56,282 bases of DNA. It comes from Nitrospirota bacterium (GTDB lineage Bacteria; Nitrospirota; UBA9217). The notes below the pieces were generated by a model that saw only the letters and a program-made list of their open reading frames with translations, was not told the DNA's origin and did not search any database. A program made the position numbers and the translations under genes. How positions within the stretch are numbered: the first letter of the stretch is position 1; every line of letters begins with the position of its first letter. This document shows positions 41,401 through 53,439 of this stretch, one piece after another. Location: positions 1 through 56,282 of the forward strand of contig JAOUEV010000015.1 in NCBI GenBank assembly GCA_029858565.1. Reading direction: 5' to 3'.

Positions 41401-42396
41401 TCAGCAGATCCGCGGCAGCATTTCTCCTGGAAGCATATCCACGATGCGGCTGCCGCCGACAGCGGTTTCGAGCAATACCATGCCGTTCGGACTTGCCTGC
41501 ACCTCTCCGATCAGATGCGCATTTCTTCCAAAAGGATGTGACTTCATTGCTTCAAGCACGTCACCAGCCTTGTCAGCTTCCACAATCGCAATCAAGATGC
41601 CTTCATTTGCCACATACAGAGGATCGAGCCCCAGAAGGTCGCAGGCGCCTTTCACCGGGGGAGGGATCGGGAGGTCCTGCTCGCGGATCTTGATGCACAT
41701 CCCGGACTCCAGAGCCGCCTCCTTCAGGGTCGTGGCCATGCCCCCGCGGGTCGGATCGCGCATGAAATGGATGTCCGGGGCCGTATTCAGCATTGCCTTG
41801 ACCAAGCCGTTCAACGGCCGGGAGTCGGTCTTTACCGGCGGATCAAAGGAAAGGCCGTTCCGCTCAGCAAGGATCGCAATGCCGTGGTTCCCGATCTCGC
41901 CGCTCACGATCACCCTGTCCCCCGCCTTGATCCTCGATGCCGCGATATCCACCCCGTCCCTGAGCGCGCCGACGCCCGAGGTATTGATGAATATCCCGTC
42001 CGCCTTGCCCTTGTTCACCACCTTGGTATCGCCGGCCACGATGCGCACACCGGCCTGGCGGGCGGCTTCAGCCATTGATGCAACGATCGTCTTGAGGTCC
42101 GCGAAAGGAAAGCCCTCTTCTATAATGAATCCCACGGACAGATAGAGCGGCTCGGCTCCTGCAACTGCAAGGTCGTTCACGGTCCCGCATACCGCAAGGT
42201 CCCCGATATTGCCGCCCGGGAAAAAGAGCGGCGTTACCACATAGGAATCGGTGGTATAGGCAAGCCGTCCCGTTGGAACGCTCACAATGGCCGAGTCGCC
42301 GGAGCCCTTGATCCCAAAGGCAGGGCTGAAGTGCTCGCGTATCAACGCGTGCATCAGCTTGCCGCCGCTGCCGTGGCCTAAGAGAATTTTATCCAT
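41401..42396 (-). CDS. hypE: Hydrogenase maturation carbamoyl dehydratase HypE
   Basis: HGSGGK, TTDSYVVTPLFFPGG, GDTKVV, RDPTRGG, C-terminal PRIC. Confidence 0.97.
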   Translation of the reverse strand: MDKILLGHGSGGKLMHALIREHFSPAFGIKGSGDSAIVSVPTGRLAYTTDSYVVTPLFFPGGNIGDLAVCGTVNDLAVAGAEPLYLSVGFIIEEGFPFADLKTIVASMAEAARQAGVRIVAGDTKVVNKGKADGIFINTSGVGALRDGVDIAASRIKAGDRVIVSGEIGNHGIAILAERNGLSFDPPVKTDSRPLNGLVKAMLNTAPDIHFMRDPTRGGMATTLKEAALESGMCIKIREQDLPIPPPVKGACDLLGLDPLYVANEGILIAIVEADKAGDVLEAMKSHPFGRNAHLIGEVQASPNGMVLLETAVGGSRIVDMLPGEMLPRIC

Positions 42397-42413
42397 GAAA
42401 AAGTCTCATACTT

Positions 42414-43469
42414 TTATTGTCCGTACTTGAAGTACGCCGCGCAGCTTCCCTCAGTGCTGACCATGCAGGGCCCCACCGGATTATCCGGAGTGCATCCGGT
42501 CCCAAAAAGAGCGCATTCCGTAGGGATCTTGACACCCCGCAGGATGTCTCCGCAGGAGCAGAGCTCCGGCTCAGGCACGCCGGTGGTCTCAGGATGGAAC
42601 CGCGCGTCCGCGTCCACGGAACTGTATTTCTCTCGCAGCTTCAAGCCCGTACCCGGCAGAACCCCGATCCCCCGCCAGTATGCGTCCTCAGGTTCGAATA
42701 TCTCATTCAGCAAGGCAACAGCTTTGGGATTTCCGTCCTCTTTCACTACCGAGGGGTACCCATTCTCCACCTTGGCTTCTTTTCGCGCGATCTGGCGCAG
42801 GATCATCAGAATGCCGAGAAGGATCTCCGGTGCTTCGAATCCCGTCACCGCGCAGGGTTTCTGATAATCCGAAGCAACGAACTCATAAGGCCGGGTTCCG
42901 ATGATCGTGCTCACATGTCCGGGAAGGATGAATCCGTCGACTCTCACGTCCGCAGAATCGAGCAGCGCCTTGAGAGCGAGCGGAACGGTCTTGTGCGATG
43001 AGAAGACCGAGAAGTTCTTCACCTTTTTCCGAACAGCATCAAATGCCGTGGCCGCGATCAGCGGCGAGGTGGTCTCGAAACCGGTGCCGAAGAATACGAC
43101 TTCCTTCTGCGGATCGCTCTGCGCCAGCTTGAGCGCGTCCATGGGTGAATACATGACGCGCACATCCGCGCCCTCGGACCGCGCTTCAAGCAAGGACTGC
43201 CTGCCTCCCGGCACCCGCATCATGTCCCCGAAGGTTATCAGCGCCGTGTTGGGGCGTTTCGCGATCGATATAGCTGCGTCTACATCAGCGATGGAAGTTA
43301 CGCAAACCGGGCACCCCGGTCCGCTCAGGAGCGAGATGGACGAAGGAAGCAGGCTCCGGATGCCGTGACGGAAGATGGCGACTGTATGCGTCCCGCAGAC
43401 CTCCATGAGCTTGATGGGCCTGTTGATGCTGCCCATGAGTGATTGTATCTCGTCGATCATTTGATTCAT
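42414..43469 (-). CDS. hypD: Hydrogenase maturation protein HypD
   Basis: MEVCGTH, GPGCPVC, GFETT, PGHVS, GPCMVSTEGSCAAY. Confidence 0.97.
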   Translation of the reverse strand: MNQMIDEIQSLMGSINRPIKLMEVCGTHTVAIFRHGIRSLLPSSISLLSGPGCPVCVTSIADVDAAISIAKRPNTALITFGDMMRVPGGRQSLLEARSEGADVRVMYSPMDALKLAQSDPQKEVVFFGTGFETTSPLIAATAFDAVRKKVKNFSVFSSHKTVPLALKALLDSADVRVDGFILPGHVSTIIGTRPYEFVASDYQKPCAVTGFEAPEILLGILMILRQIARKEAKVENGYPSVVKEDGNPKAVALLNEIFEPEDAYWRGIGVLPGTGLKLREKYSSVDADARFHPETTGVPEPELCSCGDILRGVKIPTECALFGTGCTPDNPVGPCMVSTEGSCAAYFKYGQ

Positions 43470-43507
43470 GAATATCTTTCTTTCCTCTCCCCTTGGGGAA
43501 GAGGATG

Positions 43508-45919
43508 TTATTGCCCGTATTTTTTCAATCTTTCCCGCACAAGATATGCCTGTCCGAGTGATATGCATGCATCATTCGGCGGCATCGCCCGGTTCAGGTA
43601 AACATTCATTCCTTCCGCAACCAGCGATTCCTGAGATCTTGCCGCAAGATATCTATTCTGGAATGTCCCGCCGGAAAGAGCAGCATCCTTGATACCTGTC
43701 TTCTGTTGAAGTCTCTTGACCATGGACGTTATCGCGAAAAGGATCGTATTATGAAATCTCGCAGCAATGAGAGAACGATCGATTCCCCCGTTCAGATCAT
43801 TAATGATCATCTTGATCGTTGCTCCGAAGTCCACGATAGTATACGTATTTTCCTCTCTGAAAACAACCGGGTACTGTTCGTCAATCCCCTCTCGCACGAG
43901 CGATTCAAGGGCAATGGCAGCCTCGCCCTCGAAGGTGTTCCTGTCGCAAATACCGATCAACGCTGCTACCGCATCGAACAGCCTGCCTGCGCCGGACGAA
44001 AGCGGGGACACTTCCCTGATCCCGGTTATCTTAAGCACCTGGTCGATCGATTCTTTGCCGTATCGCGCAAAGAACCCGATCTTGTCGAATACAGCGGAAG
44101 AATCCGCTCCAACAGCCGCCGACACAAGGCTTACAGCGGTCCTCCAGGGCTCCCGTATAGCAGCTTCCCCGCCGGGCAGCGGGATATACTTGAAATGGCC
44201 GACCCTCTCAAAATCATCTATTCCCGCGATCAGGAATTCCCCGCCCCAGAGGTTCCCGTCCGTCCCATACCCGGTCCCGTCAAAGGCCACACCGATGACC
44301 GGGCCATTGAGCCCATGCTCAGCCATGACCGAGCCGATGTGCGCGTAATGATGTTGTATGGCGTACGACGTTATTTCATTTCGCACTCCGCACTCCGCTC
44401 TCCGCACTTGTCCCATTGCCCATTGAGTTGACAAATAGCCGGGATGGAGATCATGCACAAGAGCAACCGGTTTGACCCGATAGACCTGCTTAAGGTTATT
44501 CAGCGCCTCCTCATAGAACAGCAGGGTTTCGTAGTTCTCCATATCACCGATATGCTGGCTCGGGATAGCATATGCGCCCTTCGTAAGCGTGAAGGTGTTC
44601 TTCAGGTCCGCTCCGCAGCCCATTACCTCCGGCCCGTCGTCAGACAGACAGATCGGTTCCGGTGCATAGCCCCGGGAACGACGAAGGAACATGATTTCGG
44701 TATTCCGCGTTCCGTGTTCAGTAATTAAAATATTCCGCACTCCGCATTCCGCACTCCGCACTCGCATTACCGTATCGTCCACCCGCATAAAGATATCCCG
44801 GTTATGCAAGAGGAAGGCATCAACAATACCTGACAGCTTTTGAATCGCTTCTTCATTGTCCCGCACGATGGGTTCTTCCGACAGATTGCCGCTGGTCATT
44901 ACCAGCGCCCGGAGCTCCGCCATTTCAGATGTGTTTTGCCGATGGAATAACAGATAATGCATCGGCGTGTAGGGCAGCATGCAACCAATAGAGTTGTTCT
45001 TTGGAGATACCGCTTCGGATAAAGGAGCCGAGGGTCCCTGCTTTTTCCTGAGAAGCACGATCGGCCTTGCATGTGATTCCAGCTGATGCTGTTCCTGATC
45101 GTTCACTTCACAGAAACTCCGAATTTCATCGATTGACGGCGCCATGACCGCGAAAGGCTTGTTGCTCCTACGTTTCCGATCGCGCAACCGTCTTACAGCT
45201 TCGTCATTCGCTGCATCACAGGCGATATGAAATCCGCCAAGCCCTTTTATCGCAACGATGCCGCCGTCGCGTAAATGCTCAACACAAGCCTTGAGCGCGT
45301 CCCCCCTCACCTTAGTCCCCTCCTCCATGGGGAGAGGGCCGGGGTGAGAGGCGAATCGGAACTCAACCTGCGGCCCACACACAAGACATGCATTCGGCTG
45401 TGCGTGAAATCTCCGGTCCAGGGGATCGCGGTATTCCTTTTCGCAGGCCGGACACATGGCAAAGGGCGCCATAGTCGTGTTCGGCCGGTCGTAGGGCACG
45501 CGCAGGGTGATCGAGTACCGAGGGCCGCAGTTCGTGCAATTGATGAACGGATACAGATGCCTGCGGTCCTGGGGGCTCATAAGCTCGCGCAAACAGTCTG
45601 GACAGATCGACACATCAGGAGAAAGGAGAGTAAAGGCCTTTTCGGTATTTATACTGGGAAGGATCTTGAAGAACGCAGAGCCGTCAGCAGGCAGGTATGC
45701 TACATGCACCGTCGAGATACGCGAGAGCGGCGGCGCTTCCTTCGGGAGACGGTCCAGAAACTCAGCTAGTCTCCCCCCTTCCGCCTCTATCAATACACCA
45801 TTCGCCGTATTGGTGACATGTCCCCCGATGCCCAGTGCAGTGGCAAGCGAGTAAACATAGGGCCGGAAACCGACGCCCTGGACAACGCCGGTTATTGTGA
45901 TCTGAGCCCGTTCAGCCAT
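43508..45919 (-). CDS. hypF: Carbamoyltransferase HypF
   Basis: Acylphosphatase GVVQGVGFRP, two CxxC-x18-CxxC zinc fingers, KGLGGFH, SQHIGD, QHHYAH, DGTGYG, PPND. Confidence 0.97.
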   Translation of the reverse strand: MAERAQITITGVVQGVGFRPYVYSLATALGIGGHVTNTANGVLIEAEGGRLAEFLDRLPKEAPPLSRISTVHVAYLPADGSAFFKILPSINTEKAFTLLSPDVSICPDCLRELMSPQDRRHLYPFINCTNCGPRYSITLRVPYDRPNTTMAPFAMCPACEKEYRDPLDRRFHAQPNACLVCGPQVEFRFASHPGPLPMEEGTKVRGDALKACVEHLRDGGIVAIKGLGGFHIACDAANDEAVRRLRDRKRRSNKPFAVMAPSIDEIRSFCEVNDQEQHQLESHARPIVLLRKKQGPSAPLSEAVSPKNNSIGCMLPYTPMHYLLFHRQNTSEMAELRALVMTSGNLSEEPIVRDNEEAIQKLSGIVDAFLLHNRDIFMRVDDTVMRVRSAECGVRNILITEHGTRNTEIMFLRRSRGYAPEPICLSDDGPEVMGCGADLKNTFTLTKGAYAIPSQHIGDMENYETLLFYEEALNNLKQVYRVKPVALVHDLHPGYLSTQWAMGQVRRAECGVRNEITSYAIQHHYAHIGSVMAEHGLNGPVIGVAFDGTGYGTDGNLWGGEFLIAGIDDFERVGHFKYIPLPGGEAAIREPWRTAVSLVSAAVGADSSAVFDKIGFFARYGKESIDQVLKITGIREVSPLSSGAGRLFDAVAALIGICDRNTFEGEAAIALESLVREGIDEQYPVVFREENTYTIVDFGATIKMIINDLNGGIDRSLIAARFHNTILFAITSMVKRLQQKTGIKDAALSGGTFQNRYLAARSQESLVAEGMNVYLNRAMPPNDACISLGQAYLVRERLKKYGQ

Positions 45920-46548
45920 TGAGCCCACGCGTCGATGCCCTGGCCGGTGGCGCAGGACACCTCGAATACCTGGAGCTTCGGATTAAGAGCACGGGAATCG
46001 TTCCTGATCTTGTTCATGTCCACGTTCATCATGTGCGGCAGCAGATCGATCTTGTTCAGGACCAGTGCCGATGATTCCTGGAACATGAGTGGGTATTTAA
46101 GGGGTTTGTCATGCCCCTCTGCAATGGAAAGGACCATCATCTTAATGTCCTCGCCCACCTTGAACTCCGCCGGGCAGACAAGGTTCCCCACGTTCTCGAT
46201 GATGACCATATCCAGGTCCTTCAGGGGCAGATCGTCGAGAACCGAATTGATCATGTTCGCGTCCAGGTGGCAGGCGCCGCCCGTATTGATCTGCACCACG
46301 GGAATATCAAGAGCGCCGATGCGTTCTGCGTCGTCGGATCCCACGATGTCCCCTTCGATGACGCCTATTTTGAGATGCGGTTTCAGCTCCTTGATGGTCT
46401 TTTCCAGGAGCGTGGTCTTCCCCGCTCCCGGAGCGCCCATGAGGTTCGCGACGAATACCCCGGCTTCCTTGAATTTCTTTCTGTTTTCCTCTGCGATCCG
46501 GTCATTCGCTTCGAGGATCCGTGAGACCACTTTGACCTTCATATTCAA
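45892..46548 (-). CDS. hypB: Hydrogenase nickel insertion GTPase HypB
   Basis: GAPGAGKTT, GGACHLDA, ENVGNLVCPA, KPLKYP, NKID. Confidence 0.97.
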   Translation of the reverse strand: MNMKVKVVSRILEANDRIAEENRKKFKEAGVFVANLMGAPGAGKTTLLEKTIKELKPHLKIGVIEGDIVGSDDAERIGALDIPVVQINTGGACHLDANMINSVLDDLPLKDLDMVIIENVGNLVCPAEFKVGEDIKMMVLSIAEGHDKPLKYPLMFQESSALVLNKIDLLPHMMNVDMNKIRNDSRALNPKLQVFEVSCATGQGIDAWAQWLNGLRSQ

Positions 46549-47084
46549 TGCACTTCCATGTCAACGATCTCCATCTCCCTGCCCCGGGTGATCTCGAAGT
46601 CCGCGGAATTGCAATGGGGACAGGAAAAAACATACTGTACATCCGGAACGTCGAATTCCCTGCTGCAGGCCTTGCAGGTCCCGCCGATCGGTACGATCTC
46701 GATGGTCATCTTGGCGTTCTTTGCTTTGGTAGGTTCCTTGAGCGCATCAAAGGCGAACTGGAGCGACTCCGGCATGACGCCGGTAGCTTTTCCCAGCCTT
46801 ACCGTCAGGCCGTCCACCTCGGAGCAGCCTTTTTCCACGCACTGTTCCTCAATGATCTCAAGGATACTGTGGGCGATCGATGATTCGTGCATGATCTCAC
46901 CTGTCTGAAATGCCTCGGCCTTGATGGTCTGGATGGCGAAACCGGCATGGACGAGCACAAAATCGCCGATCTTCGGCGTCTCGGGAAGAAGCATGATGCT
47001 GACTTCCTTCCGGGCCCCGTACACATCGATCATGGCCAGGTCATTGTCAATGGATATCACTTTTGAGGGGACCGCAAGGCACAT
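46545..47084 (-). CDS. hypC-hypA: HypC-HypA fusion protein
   Basis: MCLAVP...GDFVLVHAGFAI (HypC, 64 aa) in frame with MHESSIA...CKAC...CPHC...GREM (HypA); no stop between them. Confidence 0.9.
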   Translation of the reverse strand: MCLAVPSKVISIDNDLAMIDVYGARKEVSIMLLPETPKIGDFVLVHAGFAIQTIKAEAFQTGEIMHESSIAHSILEIIEEQCVEKGCSEVDGLTVRLGKATGVMPESLQFAFDALKEPTKAKNAKMTIEIVPIGGTCKACSREFDVPDVQYVFSCPHCNSADFEITRGREMEIVDMEVH

Positions 47085-47554
47085 GGTATCTTCCACTCAT
47101 TCAGCTTTTCGGCAATACGCTCGATAAGCGATTCTTTCTTATCCCATATCTCCCTGGTCATGTCAAGGCCGAGCTCCAGGCTCTTGGGCTGGATCCCGAT
47201 GATGCATATTTCCTTCGGGTAGTTGCCTGACAGTTTGACAATGGAAAGTACGTCCATCAGTCCAAGATGATGCATTGATGCCTTCGTGGCCAGCTTGACA
47301 GGAATGGCTTCGTTCTCGAGGGTATCGATATATCCCGGCTCCTGATCGAAGTTCACCGCATCCACCATCAGGACCTTTTCCCTGCCCTCGATGAACGGAA
47401 GCAGGTCAAGACCTGCTGCACCGCCGTCGATGATCTCGACATAATCCGGAACTTCGTAACGCTTATCGAACTCATTTACCGTATGAACTCCCACGCCCTC
47501 GTCGGTCATCAGGATGTTCCCCAAGCCGAGGATCGTGATGGTCGGTTCCTGCAT
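47057..47554 (-). CDS. hybD: Hydrogenase maturation endopeptidase (HyaD/HybD family)
   Basis: ILGLGNILMTDEGVG, IDGG, VDAV, SMHH, IGIQP; RBS GGAGG. Confidence 0.93.
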   Translation of the reverse strand: MQEPTITILGLGNILMTDEGVGVHTVNEFDKRYEVPDYVEIIDGGAAGLDLLPFIEGREKVLMVDAVNFDQEPGYIDTLENEAIPVKLATKASMHHLGLMDVLSIVKLSGNYPKEICIIGIQPKSLELGLDMTREIWDKKESLIERIAEKLNEWKIPCALRSPQK

Positions 47555-47577
47555 CAAAGTGCCTACCTCCGATAAAT

Positions 47578-47621
47578 AAAAAAGCCCTCCGCCTCCGGAA
47601 GAAGGGGGCATGAGGGCTTTT
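47578..47621 (-). terminator. Putative intrinsic terminator between structural and maturation genes
   Basis: AAAAGCCCTC...GAGGGCTTTTT stem with U-tract on the minus strand. Confidence 0.6.
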
Positions 47622-47642: not shown

Positions 47643-49343
47643 CTAGAGGGCCTTCACCTTCACGATCTCCCCGCCCTTGGCATCGACCATGTGAATGGCG
47701 CAGGCCAGGCAGGGATCGAACGAATGGACCGTCCTGAGGACCTCCAGCGGTTTCTCCGGATCAGCAAGCGGCGTTCCCACAAGTGATGCTTCATAAGGTC
47801 CGGGCGCATCGCTCGCGTTACGCGGAGCTGCGTTCCATGTTGACGGAACAACGCACTGGTAATTCTTGATCTTTCCGCTGTCTATGACCGCCCAGTGCGA
47901 CAGGATGCCGCGCGGCGCTTCATGGAAGCCCACTCCCCGTATCTCACCGCTCGGGAAGTTAGGTGCGTTGAAGGTCTTCACATCGCCCTTTCCGATATTC
48001 GCGATCAGCGCATTCCACTGGTTCGTGCATTCATCGAGCAGCACTGCGCAGCGCACGGCACGGGCACCGATGCGGCCGATGGTGGAGTGCAGCGCAGCAG
48101 GACCGACCTTGGTCTTGGCGACCGCGCTGATCGTGTTCAGCATTTCGGTAACATACTTCTTGGTTCCGGCATGACCTGCAGCATACATGCACAGTACATT
48201 TGCCAGCGGTCCGACCTGCGCGGGCTTGCCGTTGAAAGTAGGCGCCTTGACCCAGGAATACTTCCCGTCGTACTGCATGCCCGTATGGTTCGGGTCCGTG
48301 GATTCTTCCCAGGGATGCTTGTTCCAGTCGCCTTTATACCAGGAATGCTTGATGCTTTCCTTGACGCCATTCTTGAAGTATTCGTCGTTAAAGCTCTTGA
48401 TGGGCTTGAAGGTGCCGAGGTCGCCGTTCTCGATATATCCGCCCGGAAGCGCAAAGGCGGTCCCCTTCGTGTCCATGGGCATATCAGGCGCGGAAAGATA
48501 GTTTGTGACGCCTTTGCCGTAGCCGGTCCATTCGGCATACAGTGCCGCCACAGCTGCGACATCGACCAGCATGGCATTCCTCACAAAGCCCTGCACCTCG
48601 TCGATGAGCGTTTTGATGTAGTACAGCCGCTCCATATTCAGCGCGGACTGGTTGTCCGGATTGATCGGGTTTGCCACGCCGCCAACAGCCAGGTTCTGGA
48701 TGTTCGGCGTCTTGGAACCGAGGATCGAAACGACCATGTTGATCCTTCGCTGGAAATGGAGCGCCTGGAGGTAGTGAGCCGAGGCAAGGAGGTTCACTTC
48801 CGGCGGCAGCTTCATTGCCTTATGGCCCCAGTAGCCGTTCGCGTAAATACCAAGCTGGCCGCTGGATACGAAGGTCTTGAGACGGTCCTGGACCTCTTTC
48901 ATGTGCTTGGCGCTGTTCTGGTCCCAGTTCGAAAGGCTCTCACCAAGCTGGGACGCTTTCTTGGGATCGGCCTTGAGAGCCGAGACAATATCTACCCAGT
49001 CAAGCGCGGCCAGGTGGTAAAAATGCACGATATGGTCATGAACGCCATGGGCGGCCATGATCAGGTTCCTGATGAACTGCGCGTTCAGCGGTATGTCGAG
49101 CTGCAGGGCGTTCTCTACCGACCTCACCGAGGTCAGTGCGTGTACGGACGTTCAAACCCCGCAGATGCGTTGGGTGAAGAGCCAGACCTCCCGGGCATCC
49201 CTGCCTTTCACGATATTCTCGATCCCGCGCCACATCTGGCCAGACGACCACGCCTTGGTCACCTTGCCGCCATCGGTCTCGCACTCGATGCGGAGATGGC
49301 CTTCGATCCTGGTGATAGGATCAATGACGATTCGTTTCGACAT
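47643..49343 (-). CDS. hybC: [NiFe]-hydrogenase large subunit, Hyd-2 type, 566 aa with in-frame UGA at codon 64 (predicted selenocysteine)
   Basis: Track ORFs 49152..49343 and 47643..49127 share one frame separated only by TGA: DPITRIEGH...TQRICGV-UGA-TSVHAL...; C-terminal DPCLACAIH plus a 15-aa cleavable tail. Confidence 0.9.
49117..49137 (-). promoter_or_regulatory. Putative bacterial SECIS element
   Basis: mRNA UGA-ACGUCCGUACACGC-ACUGACCUC-GGU-GAGGUCGGU: 9-bp stem (one G-U), G-initiated 3-nt loop starting 23 nt after the UGA. Confidence 0.75.
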
Positions 49344-49367
49344 GGGTTTCTGTCTCCTTCCGAAAAG

Positions 49368-50549
49368 TTATGCGTGCTCCGCCTTCGGCAGCACGGGGAA
49401 TTTCTTTACAATGTACAGGTACGCCATGATCTCGAAGGAGATCATGCCCAGGGTGATCACGGTCTCGGAGAACGACGGAAAGTAGCTCCAGTTTGCCCCC
49501 GGATTAAATCCTACCAGGAAGGTATTGAACCGGTAGACCGTCCCTGCCATGAGCATGAAGAATGCCGAAAGGAACAGCGGCTTGGGCTTTGTCCGGTTCG
49601 CCACGGGCGCGGCGTAGACCAGTGCGGCCACGTACAGGGCATTCTCGACCCAGAACATCAGGCTTTGGATATTGATCTGGAACGCGACCCCGACCGCACC
49701 CCTGACAACCAGGTCAATGATCCGGATGGCCAGATAAACGCCGATAAGACCGGGCATGACGCCTGATATTTTTGTCAGTAACGGCATCTCGATTGGCCGT
49801 TTGAATCCTACTGCCGCGTAGATCCCCTCAAAGATCACAATTGCATATCCCATGGTAATGGCCGAGATCAGGAACAGAAGCGGCAGCAACCCGGTCTGCC
49901 AGAGCGGCGAAAGCTTCTTACCGGCGATCAGCATGAGCGATCCCAGCGATGACTGGTGCATGGTCGGCAGCAGCACGCCCACGGCGATAAAGACGAACAT
50001 GAACTTGTTCAATGTTTTCCGCAGCCCCTCGACGTTCCAGTTCCGGACGAATTCAGGCAGATGCTCTTTGTACTTGCTTACCCCCTCCAGAAAAGCCGGC
50101 ATGAACTCGATCCAGAGCACGCCGATATAGAGCGACACACAGAAAGCGACTTCGAACATGATCGAGTTCGGGTTGGCGTACCACGGTGTAAAAAGCTTGT
50201 AGGCATTCCAGTAACGACCGATATCCACAAAGATCGACGCGCCGGCAAGGGTGTAGCCGAACACGCTGGCCAGGAGCGCCGGACGCACCAGAGCGTGATA
50301 CTCTCCCTTGTTCATCACATAGACCATGAGCGCCAGGGCGTAGCCGCCGCAGGCGATCGCAGTACCCGCCACAACGTCATAGGCGATCCAGATGCCCCAG
50401 GGGTATCCGTCGTTCAGGTTCGATACCGCTCCGATGCCGAAGACATAGCGGATCGCGATCAAGAGCAGAGCAAAACCGAATATCCCCGCCAGCACCTTGA
50501 AGGGCTTGGTAAGGACCTCTCCACCTAATGGTCTGCTTTCCTCTGACAT
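49368..50549 (-). CDS. hybB: NrfD/PsrC-family membrane subunit HybB
   Basis: NLNDGYPWGIWIAYDV, ACGGYA, DIGRYWN, MFEVAFC, LPTMHQSSLGSL. Confidence 0.93.
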   Translation of the reverse strand: MSEESRPLGGEVLTKPFKVLAGIFGFALLLIAIRYVFGIGAVSNLNDGYPWGIWIAYDVVAGTAIACGGYALALMVYVMNKGEYHALVRPALLASVFGYTLAGASIFVDIGRYWNAYKLFTPWYANPNSIMFEVAFCVSLYIGVLWIEFMPAFLEGVSKYKEHLPEFVRNWNVEGLRKTLNKFMFVFIAVGVLLPTMHQSSLGSLMLIAGKKLSPLWQTGLLPLLFLISAITMGYAIVIFEGIYAAVGFKRPIEMPLLTKISGVMPGLIGVYLAIRIIDLVVRGAVGVAFQINIQSLMFWVENALYVAALVYAAPVANRTKPKPLFLSAFFMLMAGTVYRFNTFLVGFNPGANWSYFPSFSETVITLGMISFEIMAYLYIVKKFPVLPKAEHA

Positions 50550-50564: not shown

Positions 50565-51521
50565 TTATTTATGGTCCTTTGTGTTCTTGTGCACTACATA
50601 GAGCAGCCCTCCCAGGAATATGATGGGAGCGACCATTCCCTTGTAAATAGCATGCTGGATGGTCTCCGACCGCTGCGCATCCGAACGTTCCCCGAGCATT
50701 GGCATACCAAGCTTGTCAAAAGGCACACCGGCAAGATACAGTATCTGGGTGCCCCCGCCTTCCTTTTCCCCGTAAACCTGCGGGATATAGGGGGTAACCT
50801 CGCGCTCGGCAACGGCCTTTCCGTTCAATCGTTCAACAGGATAGACCTGCTTTGAACCTGGCTTGTACTGAAGCCTTTTCCTTGCTTCCGCAAGCAGGTC
50901 CTCGACCTTGCCGAACACCGTGGCGCCGGTGGGGCAGAACTCGGCGCATGCCGGGATCTCCCCCTTTTCCAGGCGGTGCGAGCACAGCTGGCACTTTCTG
51001 ATCTGCGGGAAAGTTTTTTCGAACTCGAACTTCGGGATGTTGTAGGGACAGGCGAGTTGACAATACCGGCAGCCGATGCAGGCGCTCTTATTGTAGCTCA
51101 CGACCCCATTCTTCGGATCCTTGGTGAGTGCGCTCACCGGACAGGCGGAAACGCAGGCGGGGTCCACGCAATGCATGCATTGCCGCTTTACATAGGCATG
51201 ACCGTCCTGCTCCCTGTCCTTGATCTCTCCAGTGCCGTTTTTGTACAGCTTGATGATGTTGTAGGTCTTGGAATCCGTGTCGAGCGGATTATCCCACAAG
51301 GGATCTTGTGGAGATGAGGAGCTTTGCGGCATTTCATTGTACTGTTTGCAGGCTGACACGCAGGCCTTGCAGCCGGTGCAGACAGTTGAGTCGTACAGGA
51401 AGCCGAGGGCATCCTTGCTGCGGGTCTTGGGATCACGCGCAAGGGCAGGATGGGCGTTGGATGCCACCAGAAGGCCGCCGGCTGCTGCAACTTTCAGGAA
51501 ATCTCTTCGCTTAATTTCCAT
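50565..51521 (-). CDS. hybA: Tat-exported 4x[4Fe-4S] subunit HybA
   Basis: KRRDFLK Tat motif, CTGCKACVSAC, CMHCVDPACVSACP, CIGCRYCQLACP, CQLC...PACAEFCP, C-terminal TM. Confidence 0.95.
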   Translation of the reverse strand: MEIKRRDFLKVAAAGGLLVASNAHPALARDPKTRSKDALGFLYDSTVCTGCKACVSACKQYNEMPQSSSSPQDPLWDNPLDTDSKTYNIIKLYKNGTGEIKDREQDGHAYVKRQCMHCVDPACVSACPVSALTKDPKNGVVSYNKSACIGCRYCQLACPYNIPKFEFEKTFPQIRKCQLCSHRLEKGEIPACAEFCPTGATVFGKVEDLLAEARKRLQYKPGSKQVYPVERLNGKAVAEREVTPYIPQVYGEKEGGGTQILYLAGVPFDKLGMPMLGERSDAQRSETIQHAIYKGMVAPIIFLGGLLYVVHKNTKDHK

Positions 51522-51541: not shown

Positions 51542-52666
51542 TTATTTTTTACCTTTCTCGTCCTCTCCCAGCTTGCCGGCAACCTTGTTCACCGCGGCAA
51601 ATGCGGCTCCCGCAGCTGCCGCTGCAACAACAACACCGGCGATCGTTGCGCCCTTGCCCTGCTGTTCCTGGGTATGCGGATAGGTATCGGGCGGAGTGAC
51701 CATGTGCAGACTTGCCCTGCTGAAGAGCGGCTTGTGAAAACCGATCCCCTTCTCAGTGCATCCGAAACAGGGGTGCCCCGTCCCGACGGGCCAGGTCCCG
51801 GCGCCCGTATCGCCGAAAAGGATCGACGGGCAGTTCGCGTGGGTCTCCGGGCCCTTGCAGCCCAGTTTATACAAGCAATAGCCCTTGCGATGGTTCTCAT
51901 CGCCGAATTCAGTCGCGAATCTTCCCGCATCAAAGTGCGGTCTGCGCTCACAGTTCTCATGAATGAGCCTGCCGTAGGCGAACATCGGCCTGGCTAGTTT
52001 GTCCAGTTCGGGAAGTTTCTTGAAGGTCACATAATAGAGGACCGTGGAAAGGAAATTGTACGGGTTGGGAGGACATCCAGGGATATTTATCACCGGCGTC
52101 TTAATACCTGCGTCTGCCAGCACCTTGTGCACAGGTGTTGCGCCTGTAGGATTAGGATCAGCCGACGGCACGCCGCCCCATGATGAGCAGGACCCGATAG
52201 CGATGATGGCCGCTGCGTCCTTGGCCGTGTCTTTCAGGATGTCGAGGGCGGTCCGTCCCGCGATCATGCAGTAGATCCCGTTGTCCTTGACGGGTATGGC
52301 GCCGTCGACCACGAGGATGAACTTGCCCTTGTTGGCCTTGATCGAGGCGGCCCGCGCTTCTTCGGCCTGATGGCCTGAAGGAGTGCTGAGCGTTTCGTGG
52401 TAATCTAGTGAGATGAGATCAAGGATGAGATGTTCCAGGGTGGGATGGGTGGCCCGTAACAGCGACTCTGTGCAACCGGTGCACTCCTGTGCCGACAACC
52501 AGATGACCGGCGGCCTCTTTGGATTGACAACTGCCTCGGCGATCTGCGCTCCAGCTCCGAGCGGCAGCCCCATGCCTGCGGCCACAATACTGCAGTATTT
52601 CAAAAAATCCCTGCGAGAAACACCGCCCAAATGCTGACTAAGGACCTTGAAATCTTTGTTCTTCAT
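51542..52666 (-). CDS. hybO: [NiFe]-hydrogenase small subunit HybO
   Basis: SRRDFLK Tat motif, ECTGCTES, GSCSSWGG, PGCPPNP, IHENCERR, CLYKLGCKGP, WPVGTGHPCFGC (Pro-type [3Fe-4S] medial site), C-terminal anchor. Confidence 0.95.
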   Translation of the reverse strand: MKNKDFKVLSQHLGGVSRRDFLKYCSIVAAGMGLPLGAGAQIAEAVVNPKRPPVIWLSAQECTGCTESLLRATHPTLEHLILDLISLDYHETLSTPSGHQAEEARAASIKANKGKFILVVDGAIPVKDNGIYCMIAGRTALDILKDTAKDAAAIIAIGSCSSWGGVPSADPNPTGATPVHKVLADAGIKTPVINIPGCPPNPYNFLSTVLYYVTFKKLPELDKLARPMFAYGRLIHENCERRPHFDAGRFATEFGDENHRKGYCLYKLGCKGPETHANCPSILFGDTGAGTWPVGTGHPCFGCTEKGIGFHKPLFSRASLHMVTPPDTYPHTQEQQGKGATIAGVVVAAAAAGAAFAAVNKVAGKLGEDEKGKK

Positions 52667-52919: not shown

Positions 52920-53258
52920 CTATTTATTAAACGTCTTGAGCATGTACTTAGCAATTGCCTTGGCATCATGATCTGACAGCGTCTTTTCATCGAATTTCGG
53001 CATACCAGGACCAGGATTCCGCATCAGCTTAATGATATCAGCTTCTGTCTTGATGTTATTGGCCTGGAGGTCCTTTTTATGAAGTGTTTTCTTGGGATTC
53101 ACGATATTCCCGCCGTCCTGATGGCAGACGTCACAATGCTCCTTGAACAGCACTTCTCCTGATTTAGCTGCACCGAAGCTTACCCCCACAGCTCCCGCGA
53201 TAACTCCAAAACCCAGCAATACCATGGCTAGTGACGTGATAGAAGTTCTCATATTCAT
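52920..53258 (-). CDS. Class I monoheme cytochrome c (c6/c553-like)
   Basis: Signal peptide, GEVLFKEHCDVCHQDGGNIVNPKKTL, axial Met in GPGMPKF. Confidence 0.9.
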   Translation of the reverse strand: MNMRTSITSLAMVLLGFGVIAGAVGVSFGAAKSGEVLFKEHCDVCHQDGGNIVNPKKTLHKKDLQANNIKTEADIIKLMRNPGPGMPKFDEKTLSDHDAKAIAKYMLKTFNK

Positions 53259-53439
53259 GCTATTTCGATCCTTTCTGGCCCGTAATCGCACTGCTTTTGG
53301 CTCTTCCTATTATTGACTCCATTTCAGCAATAGATAGATAGTCAGACATCTAGTCGATCAAGAAAACATTGGCATACTTTTTTAGTATAGCTGAAAAAAA
53401 GGAAATTTCAAGGAAGGCTGAACATTATGAATATATTTG

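Follow-up and report, generated by a model that had tools for sequence, protein, structure and literature searches.

The hybC-like gene described here, from an uncultured Nitrospirota bacterium, very probably (at a probability of about 0.87, as judged from sequence) encodes one full-length large subunit of a Hyd-2-type hydrogenase (HybOABC, membrane-bound, periplasmic, H2-uptake), in which a single in-frame UGA, codon 64, would be decoded as selenocysteine (Sec). The gene lies in a window of 56,282 nucleotides (the whole stretch of DNA that was analysed; contig JAOUEV010000015.1 of assembly GCA_029858565.1). The gene and the elements within it are as follows:

47643-49343, minus strand: hybC-like [NiFe]-hydrogenase large subunit, 566 codons and a stop, with a single in-frame UGA
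49152-49154, minus strand: the in-frame UGA (codon 64), a proposed selenocysteine, which aligns with the cysteine that bridges Ni and Fe
49140-49169, minus strand: L1 N-terminal Ni-binding motif, R59-I-C61-G-V-U64-T-S-V-H68
49117-49137, minus strand: SECIS-like hairpin with a 9-bp helix and a GGU apical loop, 14-nt spacer after the UGA
47691-47717, minus strand: L2 C-terminal motif, D543-P-C545-L-A-C548-A-I-H551, both cysteines present

Re-reading of the minus strand from 49343 to 47643 gives the same 566-codon frame with one TGA as in the preliminary description of this DNA, the TGA standing in the context RICGV*TSVH. That description had placed the TGA on residue 64, the second cysteine of L1, and this is borne out by the full-length alignment with Escherichia coli HybC (PDB entry: 6EN9, chain L; 798 bits), in which UGA64 falls 1:1 on Cys64, the second cysteine of the RxCGxC motif. 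The first N-terminal cysteine is kept, and the CXXU pattern is formed by C61-G-V-U64. The L2 motif, read in frame as DPCLACAIH, has both its cysteines, as had been noted, and is followed by a C-terminal extension of 15 residues. The second cysteine of the N-terminal motif is the one that bridges Ni and Fe (PMC13582414; PMC8020662; both papers are cited here and below from excerpts). In the mature site, selenium would then replace the sulfur of this cysteine, bridging Ni and Fe, and the other three ligands (Cys61, Cys545 and Cys548) would remain cysteines, as suggested by the 1:1 alignment with E. coli HybC.

The partner genes, which had been described as intact, are found on the same strand:

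51542-52666, minus strand: hybO-like small subunit with the twin-arginine motif SRRDFLKY (NF007779, 516.8 bits; cut-off 659)
50565-51521, minus strand: hybA-like Fe-S subunit (NF008134, 449.9 bits; cut-off 263)
49368-50549, minus strand: hybB-like integral membrane subunit (NF008133, 518.9 bits; cut-off 450)
47057-47611, minus strand: hybD-like maturation endopeptidase (TIGR00140, 158.4 bits; cut-off 151.8)
41401-47096, minus strand: hyp maturation genes, whole block
46545-47096, minus strand: hypC-like plus hypA frame
45892-46548, minus strand: hypB
43508-45928, minus strand: hypF
42414-43568, minus strand: hypD
41401-42396, minus strand: hypE

The starts of the hyp genes are the first possible start codons in the list of open reading frames. 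The best family for the large subunit is NF007778, 'hydrogenase 2 large subunit' (888.7 bits over residues 1-566, below the curated cut-off of 969), and its best PDB match is Hyd-2. The hybO-like small subunit scores 473 bits against TIGR00391 (cut-off 179.5), and when aligned to E. coli HybO (425 bits) it keeps the ...WPV...HPC..C... stretch, which we take to mark a [3Fe-4S] medial cluster. By its large subunit, HybA/HybB and the Tat-type HybO, the locus qualifies as a predicted Hyd-2-type (group 1c, HybOABC) uptake [NiFe] hydrogenase. Apart from the selenium, the enzyme would be an ordinary Hyd-2, with a Tat-exported HybO, HybA, HybB, the HybD protease and Hyp maturation. With E. coli hydrogenase 2 (HybOABC; PDB entries: 6EN9, 6EHQ), the locus has in common the collinear large and small subunits and the partners HybA, HybB, HybD and Hyp; the differences are the replacement of Cys64 by UGA/Sec and the host, which is an uncultured Nitrospirota bacterium.

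The classical [NiFeSe] hydrogenases (Desulfomicrobium baculatum and Desulfovibrio vulgaris Hys; Methanococcus Vhu and Fru) have the same single UGA-encoded Sec as a Ni ligand, but there the Sec stands at the first of the two cysteine positions in the C-terminal motif and is a terminal ligand, whereas the C-terminal motif is DPCLAC here. An assignment to this classical type (Hys, Vhu, Fru) is rejected, because DPCLACAIH has two Cys codons and the NiFeSe family models stay under their cut-offs. For the large subunit the scores are 457.2 versus 600 (NF033181) and 329.9 versus 780 (NF045518); the small subunit reaches 242.2 with the NiFeSe small-subunit model NF045520 (cut-off 470) and resembles HybO instead.

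The machinery for Sec insertion, which the preliminary description had proposed to look for, is found in the source genome (144 contigs, rated 100% complete by marker genes), where selA, selB, selC and selD are all above their family cut-offs. The tRNA-Sec scores 64 bits against RF01852 (cut-off 47) and is called SeC(tca) by ARAGORN, and selB (389 bits) adjoins selA (604 bits) on contig C101. There are two selD genes, each with an in-frame TGA followed by a helix of 7-8 bp, whose loop (AGGUC or GACC) starts 19-21 nt past the UGA. These selD hairpins are the same kind of element as the hairpin of the hybC-like gene. In the proposed mechanism, SelB with Sec-tRNA(Sec) would bind the 9-bp/GGU hairpin 14 nt past the UGA and deliver Sec at codon 64.

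The same SECIS could also serve to recode UGA64 as cysteine, by a SelC*-type tRNA(ReC) carried by SelB, which would leave an ordinary all-Cys Hyd-2. This is considered very unlikely. ARAGORN finds 45 tRNAs, including one tRNA-SeC(tca) and one canonical 76-nt tRNA-Cys(gca), and the sub-threshold RF01852 matches all coincide with ordinary Ser, Leu, Tyr, Gly, Trp or Arg tRNAs. With RF01852 and ARAGORN, no tRNA(ReC) or second tRNA-Sec-like gene was found in the 144-contig assembly, and the recoding tRNA raised in the preliminary description has no candidate there. In the drawing of this tRNA-Sec a G precedes the CCA end, which presumably fits a Ser/Sec identity and not a Cys identity. The single tRNA-Sec-like gene, the completeness of the genome by markers and this G all count against recoding as cysteine, although in an assembly of 144 contigs a recoding tRNA could be unassembled. 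As reported in excerpts of the Group 4 survey, tRNA(ReC) decodes UGA as Cys given a downstream SECIS (PMC13582414, citing Vargas-Rodriguez 2018), and it is present in ~17% of the genomes of Sec-type and ~56% of those of UXXU-type enzymes in the Group 4 set (PMC13582414).

The UGA recurs in relatives of the source organism. In a sample of 401 Nitrospirota genomes there are 35 matches with at least 72% identity that cover residue 64; 29 of these close orthologues have one in-frame TGA, and in all of those whose DNA was read (27 of 27) the TGA is at codon 64. The Cys-form orthologues have TGC or TGT at this codon. Among named public-record contig loci, 28 of 80 are CxxU, of which 12 have Nitrospirota-type titles and 16 have Desulfobacterales, delta-proteobacterial or Nitrospinaceae titles. 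The comparison at codon 64 that had been suggested earlier therefore bears out the recurrence, both in the 27 read orthologues and in the 28 public records. The TGA is one base from a Cys codon, and nothing else specific points to a sequencing or assembly error for TGC or TGT; with the same TGA in 27 independently assembled genomes and 28 named public records, such an error is extremely improbable. In addition, codon 64 is bridged by contigs from one independent DNA run and from RNA libraries (three runs from two studies, whose contigs may include some DNA), and among the 40 listed rows of differences for the DNA and RNA runs, with 77 further rows outside this listing, there is no difference at 49152-49154 and no TGC/TGT variant, in answer to the read check that had been proposed for these positions. 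Parts of the stretch are without read cover in X13 and X17, which is not counted as a finding.

If the TGA were a true stop, the gene would either be a pseudogene or be split into a peptide of 63 residues and an N-truncated protein of 494 residues that restarts at GTG 49127. A GTG-started ORF (47643-49127) does exist downstream of the UGA, and the 10 database proteins with at least 84% identity are all modelled at 485-495 aa. These are N-terminally truncated models, as anticipated in the preliminary description, according to which pipelines would miscall this gene. A true stop is very unlikely, as it would give a truncated protein without both N-terminal Ni ligands, and as the codon sits exactly on a metal ligand, is always TGA and is kept in the 29 of 35 close orthologues. 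In related clades, too, the TGA is confined to one or both ligand cysteines and is found nowhere else in the gene, and the whole hyb/hyp operon is intact. There is purifying selection on both sides of UGA64: in comparisons with nine comparable TGA-bearing orthologues, dN/dS lies at 0.04-0.17 before it (codons 1-63) and at 0.04-0.16 after it (codons 65-566; the C-terminal part of L016, where an indel shifted the register of the ungapped comparison, is left out, and no N-terminal ratio is given for L051 and L054, for which dS is saturated).

The selA gene is above its cut-off in 28 of the 29 TGA-bearing genomes versus 191 of 401 in the whole sample, the sole exception (G218) being 86% complete. 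The co-occurrence of selA is nevertheless rejected as a discriminator between Sec and Cys forms, because the six Cys-form genomes of the close clade also all have selA, so that the presence of the machinery does not discriminate.

The 9-bp hairpin with a GGU loop, as first described, is indeed present at 49117-49137. Its letters are ACUGACCUC-GGU-GAGGUCGGU, and its loop starts 23 nt past the UGA; the distance rule of bSECISearch is 16-37 nt. The hairpin satisfies the bacterial SECIS consensus, which is a stem-loop soon after the UGA with a G in the apical loop, at position 1 or 2 (PMC13582414). The geometry of this hairpin is exceptional, its folding energy is not. A helix of at least 9 bp (unbroken, its loop of 3-6 nt having a G at position 1 or 2 and starting 15-30 nt downstream) occurs in only 122 of 20000 synonymous re-encodings of the peptide. 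In a set of 400 such re-encodings, 47 give an equally stable hairpin. The 63-nt stretch after the UGA has a folding energy z of 0.86 versus shuffles, with 160 of 200 dinucleotide shuffles matching the hairpin energy, and the median energy of the best hairpin is -11.6 kcal/mol for the Sec forms versus -12.2 kcal/mol for the Cys forms. Hairpin stability is therefore rejected as evidence for Sec, as the Sec and Cys forms are alike in energy and shuffles and re-encodings are equally stable; some Cys orthologues keep a foldable region, and for this reason, too, stability alone proves nothing.

When the geometry is considered, a SECIS-like helix (at least 7 unbroken bp, its loop of 3-6 nt having a G at position 1 or 2 and starting 15-30 nt downstream) is found in 40 of 42 distinct CxxU sequences versus 9 of 55 distinct CxxC sequences, where the helix criteria were picked after the sequences had been seen and the related sequences among the 42 and 55 are not independent. 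Retention of the hairpin in Cys relatives had been named in the preliminary description as a point that would speak against Sec, and this is the case in part: some Cys orthologues fold, but the SECIS-like helix tracks the UGA. Covariation of the UGA with the hairpin, which had also been suggested, is similarly divided. The association of helix and UGA across clades stands, whereas the covariation inside the hairpin design of the window is thin and weakly informative: 98.4% of 126 cells pair, one pair is changed on both sides, and the covariation score is reached by 23 of 500 shuffles. The Sec clades differ in hairpin design on nearly the same peptide, the designs being CUGRCCUCG/GGU with Arg encoded as AGG, ACGCACUG/GCUU with Arg encoded as CGU, and CUCGGUC/CGGGC. 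No single structure common to all clades could be fitted, since their hairpins vary in both register and design. The machinery, the recurrence and the helix association together support what had been proposed at the outset, a probable Sec codon, accompanied by a SECIS of its own, in place of the bridging cysteine of a Hyd-2-type enzyme.

In a related Nitrospirota clade both N-terminal cysteines are encoded as UGA (UxxU), the two UGAs being 9 nt apart. Matches with two TGAs number 51 in the 401 genomes, and those that were read are all UxxU (13 of 13). The N-terminal motifs make up a series, CxxC, CxxU and UxxU. One hairpin appears to serve both UGAs of the UxxU genes, in the enzymes of which both a terminal and the bridging ligand would be selenium. 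Three UxxU genomes, all from a single genus (G005, G022 and G212; 89, 86 and 77% complete), gave no selA match at E <= 1e-60, which is read as possible incompleteness of these genomes. A tree of the orthologues has six state changes, and its starred branches force at least four for CxxU; this is a quick tree made with FastTree, and the read-through tails past true TGA stops fell in dropped columns.

A review by Baltazar et al. from 2011 in Eur J Inorg Chem is said to describe N-terminal CXXU-type enzymes in Groups 1 and 3. A design with N-terminal Sec has thus been noted before, in 2011: Takano et al. 2026 credit Baltazar et al. with two sequences from Group 1 that have the N-terminal CXXU (PMC13582414), and these Group 1 cases are termed 'purported examples' by Evans et al. 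2021 (PMC8020662). In the main texts searched, these two papers are the only ones that mention the Baltazar cases. The reported Group 1 CXXU cases have the same predicted Sec at the bridging second N-terminal cysteine and are known from sequence alone. Compared with that pair, which may itself belong to this Hyd-2-like clade, CXXU is here the majority state in a Nitrospirota clade (29 of 35) and is also found in Desulfobacterales MAGs. In the main texts covered by the literature search, no Hyd-2/group 1c enzyme with an N-terminal Sec and no Group 1 UXXU was found; the Geobacter papers and PMC7463578 held nothing relevant. How common the N-terminal CxxU is in Group 1, as well as the Nitrospirota UxxU clade, was found in no paper of this search. 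In excerpts of a 2026 selenoproteome review, the hydrogenase alpha subunits (FrhA, MvhA/VhuA/VhuU) are only UxxC, and CxxU is given only for the delta subunit.

In Group 4 the N-terminal CXXU is an accepted Sec motif, and in the [NiFeSe] enzymes of this group with CXXU, UXXC or UXXU the Sec is likewise confined to the N-terminal motif (PMC13582414). As here, several independent origins of Sec from Cys ancestors are described for Group 4, the Cys relatives also fold, and a G in one of the first two positions of the apical loop is found in 100% of the Sec types and ~26% of the Cys types, which is comparable with the helix counts given above (40/42 versus 9/55); for the UXXU forms one SECIS is proposed for both UGAs (PMC13582414). 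The Group 4 enzymes are energy-converting and membrane-bound, whereas the enzyme described here is of the periplasmic uptake Hyd-2 type with HybOAB, and the survey of Takano et al. 2026 excluded Groups 1-3 (PMC13582414).

In the engineered Group 1 variant C79U of E. coli Hyd-1, Sec is at the equivalent bridging N-terminal position (PMC8020662). This variant has 13% of the native activity, the best of four Sec variants, and a lower apparent KM for H2, and its activity indicates that the bridging position tolerates selenium; it is an artificial, UAG-programmed variant of an O2-tolerant group 1d scaffold and not a natural enzyme tuned around selenium (PMC8020662). By analogy with the engineered Hyd-1 Sec variants, the catalytic effect of the bridging selenium may be a higher affinity for H2.

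To our knowledge, the [NiFeSe] hydrogenases whose structure and mechanism have been studied all carry their selenium at a single terminal ligand, in the C-terminal motif. An enzyme from nature in which selenium bridges Ni and Fe would test ideas that have so far been probed by the engineered Hyd-1 variant only, on the role of the chalcogen in H2 affinity, hydride binding and oxidative damage. As gene callers truncate CxxU genes, metagenomic surveys of hydrogenases and counts of selenoproteins in Nitrospirota and Desulfobacterales probably carry a bias, and if Group 1 were surveyed as Group 4 was in 2026, a sizeable body of new data would probably emerge, with UxxU forms among them. The chances are about even that, among uptake hydrogenases of the Hyd-2 type, selenium at the N-terminal Ni ligands prevails in anaerobic Nitrospirota and recurs in Desulfobacterales. 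This reading draws on the changes of state (four or more) with a SECIS design particular to each Sec clade, on the series CxxC, CxxU and UxxU and on the 51 matches with two TGAs. If it is true, N-terminal selenium would be expected to give uptake hydrogenases a catalytic advantage under selection, one that differs from that of the classical C-terminal Sec.

The frame, the TGA codon, the hairpin and the C-terminal cysteines listed in the preliminary description, together with their coordinates, are all correct on re-reading of the sequence. Two of these features are the following.

49343..47643, minus strand: hybC-like hydrogenase large subunit, a 566-codon frame with a TGA at 49152-49154 as its single interruption
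49117-49137, minus strand: candidate SECIS hairpin, ACUGACCUC-GGU-GAGGUCGGU, a 9-bp helix with a GGU loop, beginning 14 nt past the UGA

The TGA is found in the context Q-R-I-C-G-V-TGA-T-S-V-H and aligns with Cys64 of HybC, the second cysteine of the N-terminal RxCGxC motif, when compared with E. coli hydrogenase-2 (PDB entry: 6EN9_L; 798 bits; residues 1-566 on 1-567). This second cysteine bridges Ni and Fe (PMC13582414, PMC8020662). In the classical [NiFeSe] enzymes the selenocysteine (Sec) is the first cysteine of the C-terminal motif, whereas the window protein lacks it there and keeps both cysteines of this motif (DPCLACAIH), which is followed by a 15-residue extension. The preliminary description proposed that UGA64 is read as Sec at the bridging N-terminal cysteine of a Hyd-2-type enzyme, and this reading, to which we give a probability of roughly 0.87, is supported by the codon position, the Sec machinery, the recurrence of the UGA, the selection acting on the gene and the association with a type of helix.

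The genes are arranged as hybO-hybA-hybB-hybC-hybD, followed by a frame with hypC-like and hypA parts and by hypB, hypF, hypD and hypE. HybA, HybB, the protease and HypA, HypB, HypD, HypE and HypF each exceed the curated cut-off for one or more family models, and HybO, which has the twin-arginine motif SRRDFLKY and can be aligned with E. coli HybO across the cluster-binding region, scores above that of a small-subunit subfamily model. Among the families, the large subunit matches 'hydrogenase 2 large subunit' best (888.7 bits, with the strict equivalog cut-off of 969 not reached), and the classical NiFeSe family models score far under their cut-offs on this protein; on these matches, the hydrogenase is therefore classified as a Hyd-2-type uptake enzyme and not as a Hys-type [NiFeSe] enzyme. 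The 183-codon open frame at 46545-47096 (minus strand) matches HypC/HybG at residues 5-63 and HypA at residues 69-183, and is a HypC-HypA fusion or else a pair of genes without an intervening stop in frame. Directly upstream of hybO there is a small cytochrome c6/PetJ-like ORF (52920-53291, minus strand; 66.9 bits versus a cut-off of 135).

The genome of the window (3.9 Mb, 144 contigs, completeness rated 100%) encodes the Sec machinery. It has one tRNA-Sec gene (64 bits; SeC(tca) according to ARAGORN), adjacent selB and selA genes, and two selD genes that both contain an in-frame TGA. The public records closest to the window (88-94% identity) are titled Nitrospirae or Nitrospirota MAGs. With RF01852 and ARAGORN, no second tRNA-Sec-like gene is found in the 144-contig assembly, all weaker RF01852 matches being ordinary tRNAs. 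The selD genes, both selenoprotein genes themselves, are the following.

Contig C3 of the window's genome, 2376-3290: selD (L012), TGA in UxxK context, with its own compact SECIS hairpin
Contig C14 of the same genome, 90529-91446: selD (L013), TGA in UxxK context, with its own compact SECIS hairpin

Helices of 7 and 8 bp come after these two UGAs; their loops, AGGUC and GACC, begin 19 and 21 nt downstream. These helices exemplify the SECIS elements of this organism; the hydrogenase hairpin fits this pattern. Of the 29 TGA-bearing genomes in the 401-genome Nitrospirota sample, 28 have selA, and the one in which it is not found is 86% complete; the gene also occurs in each of the six Cys-form genomes and, over the whole sample, in 191 genomes.

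The UGA recurs in relatives. Among the close orthologues in this sample (matches of at least 72% identity covering residue 64), 29 of 35 have a single in-frame TGA, which is codon 64 in all 27 that were read at the DNA level; five of the six TGA-less orthologues were read, and these have TGC or TGT at codon 64. In the collection of species-representative genomes, 80 named loci divide into 28 CxxU sequences (second cysteine encoded by UGA) and 52 CxxC sequences. Twelve of the CxxU records are of the Nitrospirota type, and the remaining 16 bear the title Desulfobacterales, Desulfobacteraceae, Ca. Desulfatibia, delta-proteobacterium or Nitrospinaceae; all five records of named isolates (Hydrosulfovibrio, three Sedimenticola and Sulfurisoma) are CxxC. 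The dN/dS values of the window gene against nine comparable TGA-bearing orthologues are 0.04-0.17 upstream of the codon and 0.04-0.16 downstream, which argues that both parts are maintained as coding sequence. Six state changes are required on a FastTree tree built from 119 distinct proteins; for CxxU, a minimum of four is forced by its well-supported branches. Two genome-contig loci look like Sec-to-Cys reversions: L076 is a Cys form nested within the Desulfobacterales CxxU clade, and L077 is a Cys form in which the ACGCACUG/GCUU hairpin persists in degraded form.

In the hairpin region, the type of helix tracks the UGA and the folding energy does not: the Cys orthologues fold as strongly as the Sec orthologues. 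The hairpin energy is no argument for Sec at the window gene, because of the high GC content of the region and because HAL(T/A)SVRSV, a conserved peptide, is prone to fold under any encoding; 47 of 400 synonymous re-encodings equal the real hairpin in stability. A helix of at least 7 unbroken bp, with a 3-6 nt loop, a G as first or second loop nucleotide and a loop start 15-30 nt past the codon, is present in 40 of 42 distinct CxxU and 9 of 55 distinct CxxC sequences, these limits having been chosen with the data already in view and approximating the published consensus. The version with at least 9 bp occurs in 122 of 20000 synonymous re-encodings of the window peptide. The same pattern is described for Group 4 enzymes, where the loop G is present in 100% of the Sec types versus about 26% of the Cys types, and the Cys types fold too (Takano et al., PMC13582414). 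Judged from the sequences, the Sec clades differ in their hairpin solution on a near-identical peptide: CUGRCCUC pairs with GAGGUCRG in the window's clade (Arg codon AGG or AGA), ACGCACUG with CAGUGCGU around GCUU in the Nitrospirota clade at 73-75% identity (Arg codon CGU), and CUCGGUC with GAUCGAG around CGGGC in the Desulfobacterales clade. Covariation is slight in the window's hairpin design (98.4% of 126 cells pair, with one C-G to U-A double change; 23 of 500 shuffles are equal).

Contigs that bridge the codon come from three RNA-library runs (two studies) and from a single independent DNA run; one of them, from an RNA library, is 375 nt long and spans 49009-49383. None of the 40 differences listed, out of 117 between read contigs and window, falls at 49152-49154. 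Metatranscriptome-library contigs of runs X9, X13 and X17 (sediment, soil and wetland; two studies) cover the gene or close relatives within 48700-49400, including the UGA region. RNA libraries can contain DNA, so that the RNA-library contigs are only a hint of expression. Mis-calling by annotation pipelines, as had been predicted, is observed: in a collection of 5.8 billion proteins, all ten matches of at least 84% identity are models of 485-495 residues that start past the TGA, covering 86-87% of the query, and, where named, they are plain 'hydrogenase large subunit'.

A Hyd-2-like clade with 48-55% identity to the window protein is found in other Nitrospirota families, and with the window protein as query no member is found in the window's own genome. 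Its 95 matches in the 401 genomes comprise 51 with two TGAs, 12 with one, 30 with none and two with a TAG. All 13 two-TGA loci that were read (L024-L028, L158-L165) are UxxU, RI-TGA-GV-TGA-TTVH, in which both N-terminal Ni-ligand cysteines are TGA; the UGAs are 9 nt apart and are followed by a single hairpin, often with a bulged A. Three UxxU-bearing genomes of one genus (G005, G022 and G212; 89, 86 and 77% complete) have no selA at E <= 1e-60, and selA is present in a fourth genome of this genus. The 12 one-TGA loci (L146-L157) are all CxxU, with SRICGV*TTVHSTSSVR and the hairpin CAGCUC/CGUGA/GAGCUG, and by these motifs form an additional CxxU lineage. The TAG matches, in a small-genome genus (G113:C11:14046-15719 and G289:C1:1856024-1857709), are probably alignments overrunning a natural stop, given that query residue 556 is where their relatives end.

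Going beyond the codon and its context, we infer, as the most likely reading, that SelB with Sec-tRNA(Sec) would act on the hairpin in decoding UGA64, that the large subunit would be matured by the Hyp system and HybD, and that the active site would have a selenolate at the place of the Hyd-2 Cys64 thiolate. The engineered C79U variant of E. coli Hyd-1, with Sec at the equivalent position, has 13% of the native activity, the best of four Sec variants, and a lowered apparent KM for H2; at 10% O2 it is almost inactive, whereas native Hyd-1 keeps about 35% activity (PMC8020662). By analogy with this lowered KM, it may reasonably be guessed that the natural enzymes, in sediments and groundwater poor in H2, gain in H2 affinity.

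N-terminal Sec is described in Group 4 for 47 sequences (27 with CXXU, 4 with UXXC, 16 with UXXU), of which UXXC and UXXU are termed previously unrecognised (Takano et al. 2026, PMC13582414). The same paper credits N-terminal CXXU in three sequences, two of Group 1 and one of Group 3, to Baltazar et al. 2011, and bridging-Sec cases are labelled 'purported' by Evans et al. 2021 (PMC8020662). As cited there, the Group 1 CXXU sequences of Baltazar et al. 2011 share the N-terminal motif with the window gene, and they may belong to its clade. In the paper texts searched, no Hyd-2 or group 1c enzyme with Sec in the N-terminal motif is described, nor how frequent such enzymes are, nor UXXU in Group 1; UXXU is reported there for Group 4 only. 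The N-terminal-Sec Group 1 hydrogenases are a barely described kind, of which the window gene is a member. From the sequences compared, N-terminal selenium in Hyd-2-type hydrogenases appears to be both frequent and recurrent and to be mis-annotated systematically, and it is this frequency, recurrence and mis-annotation, more than the single gene of the window, that makes the finding of interest.
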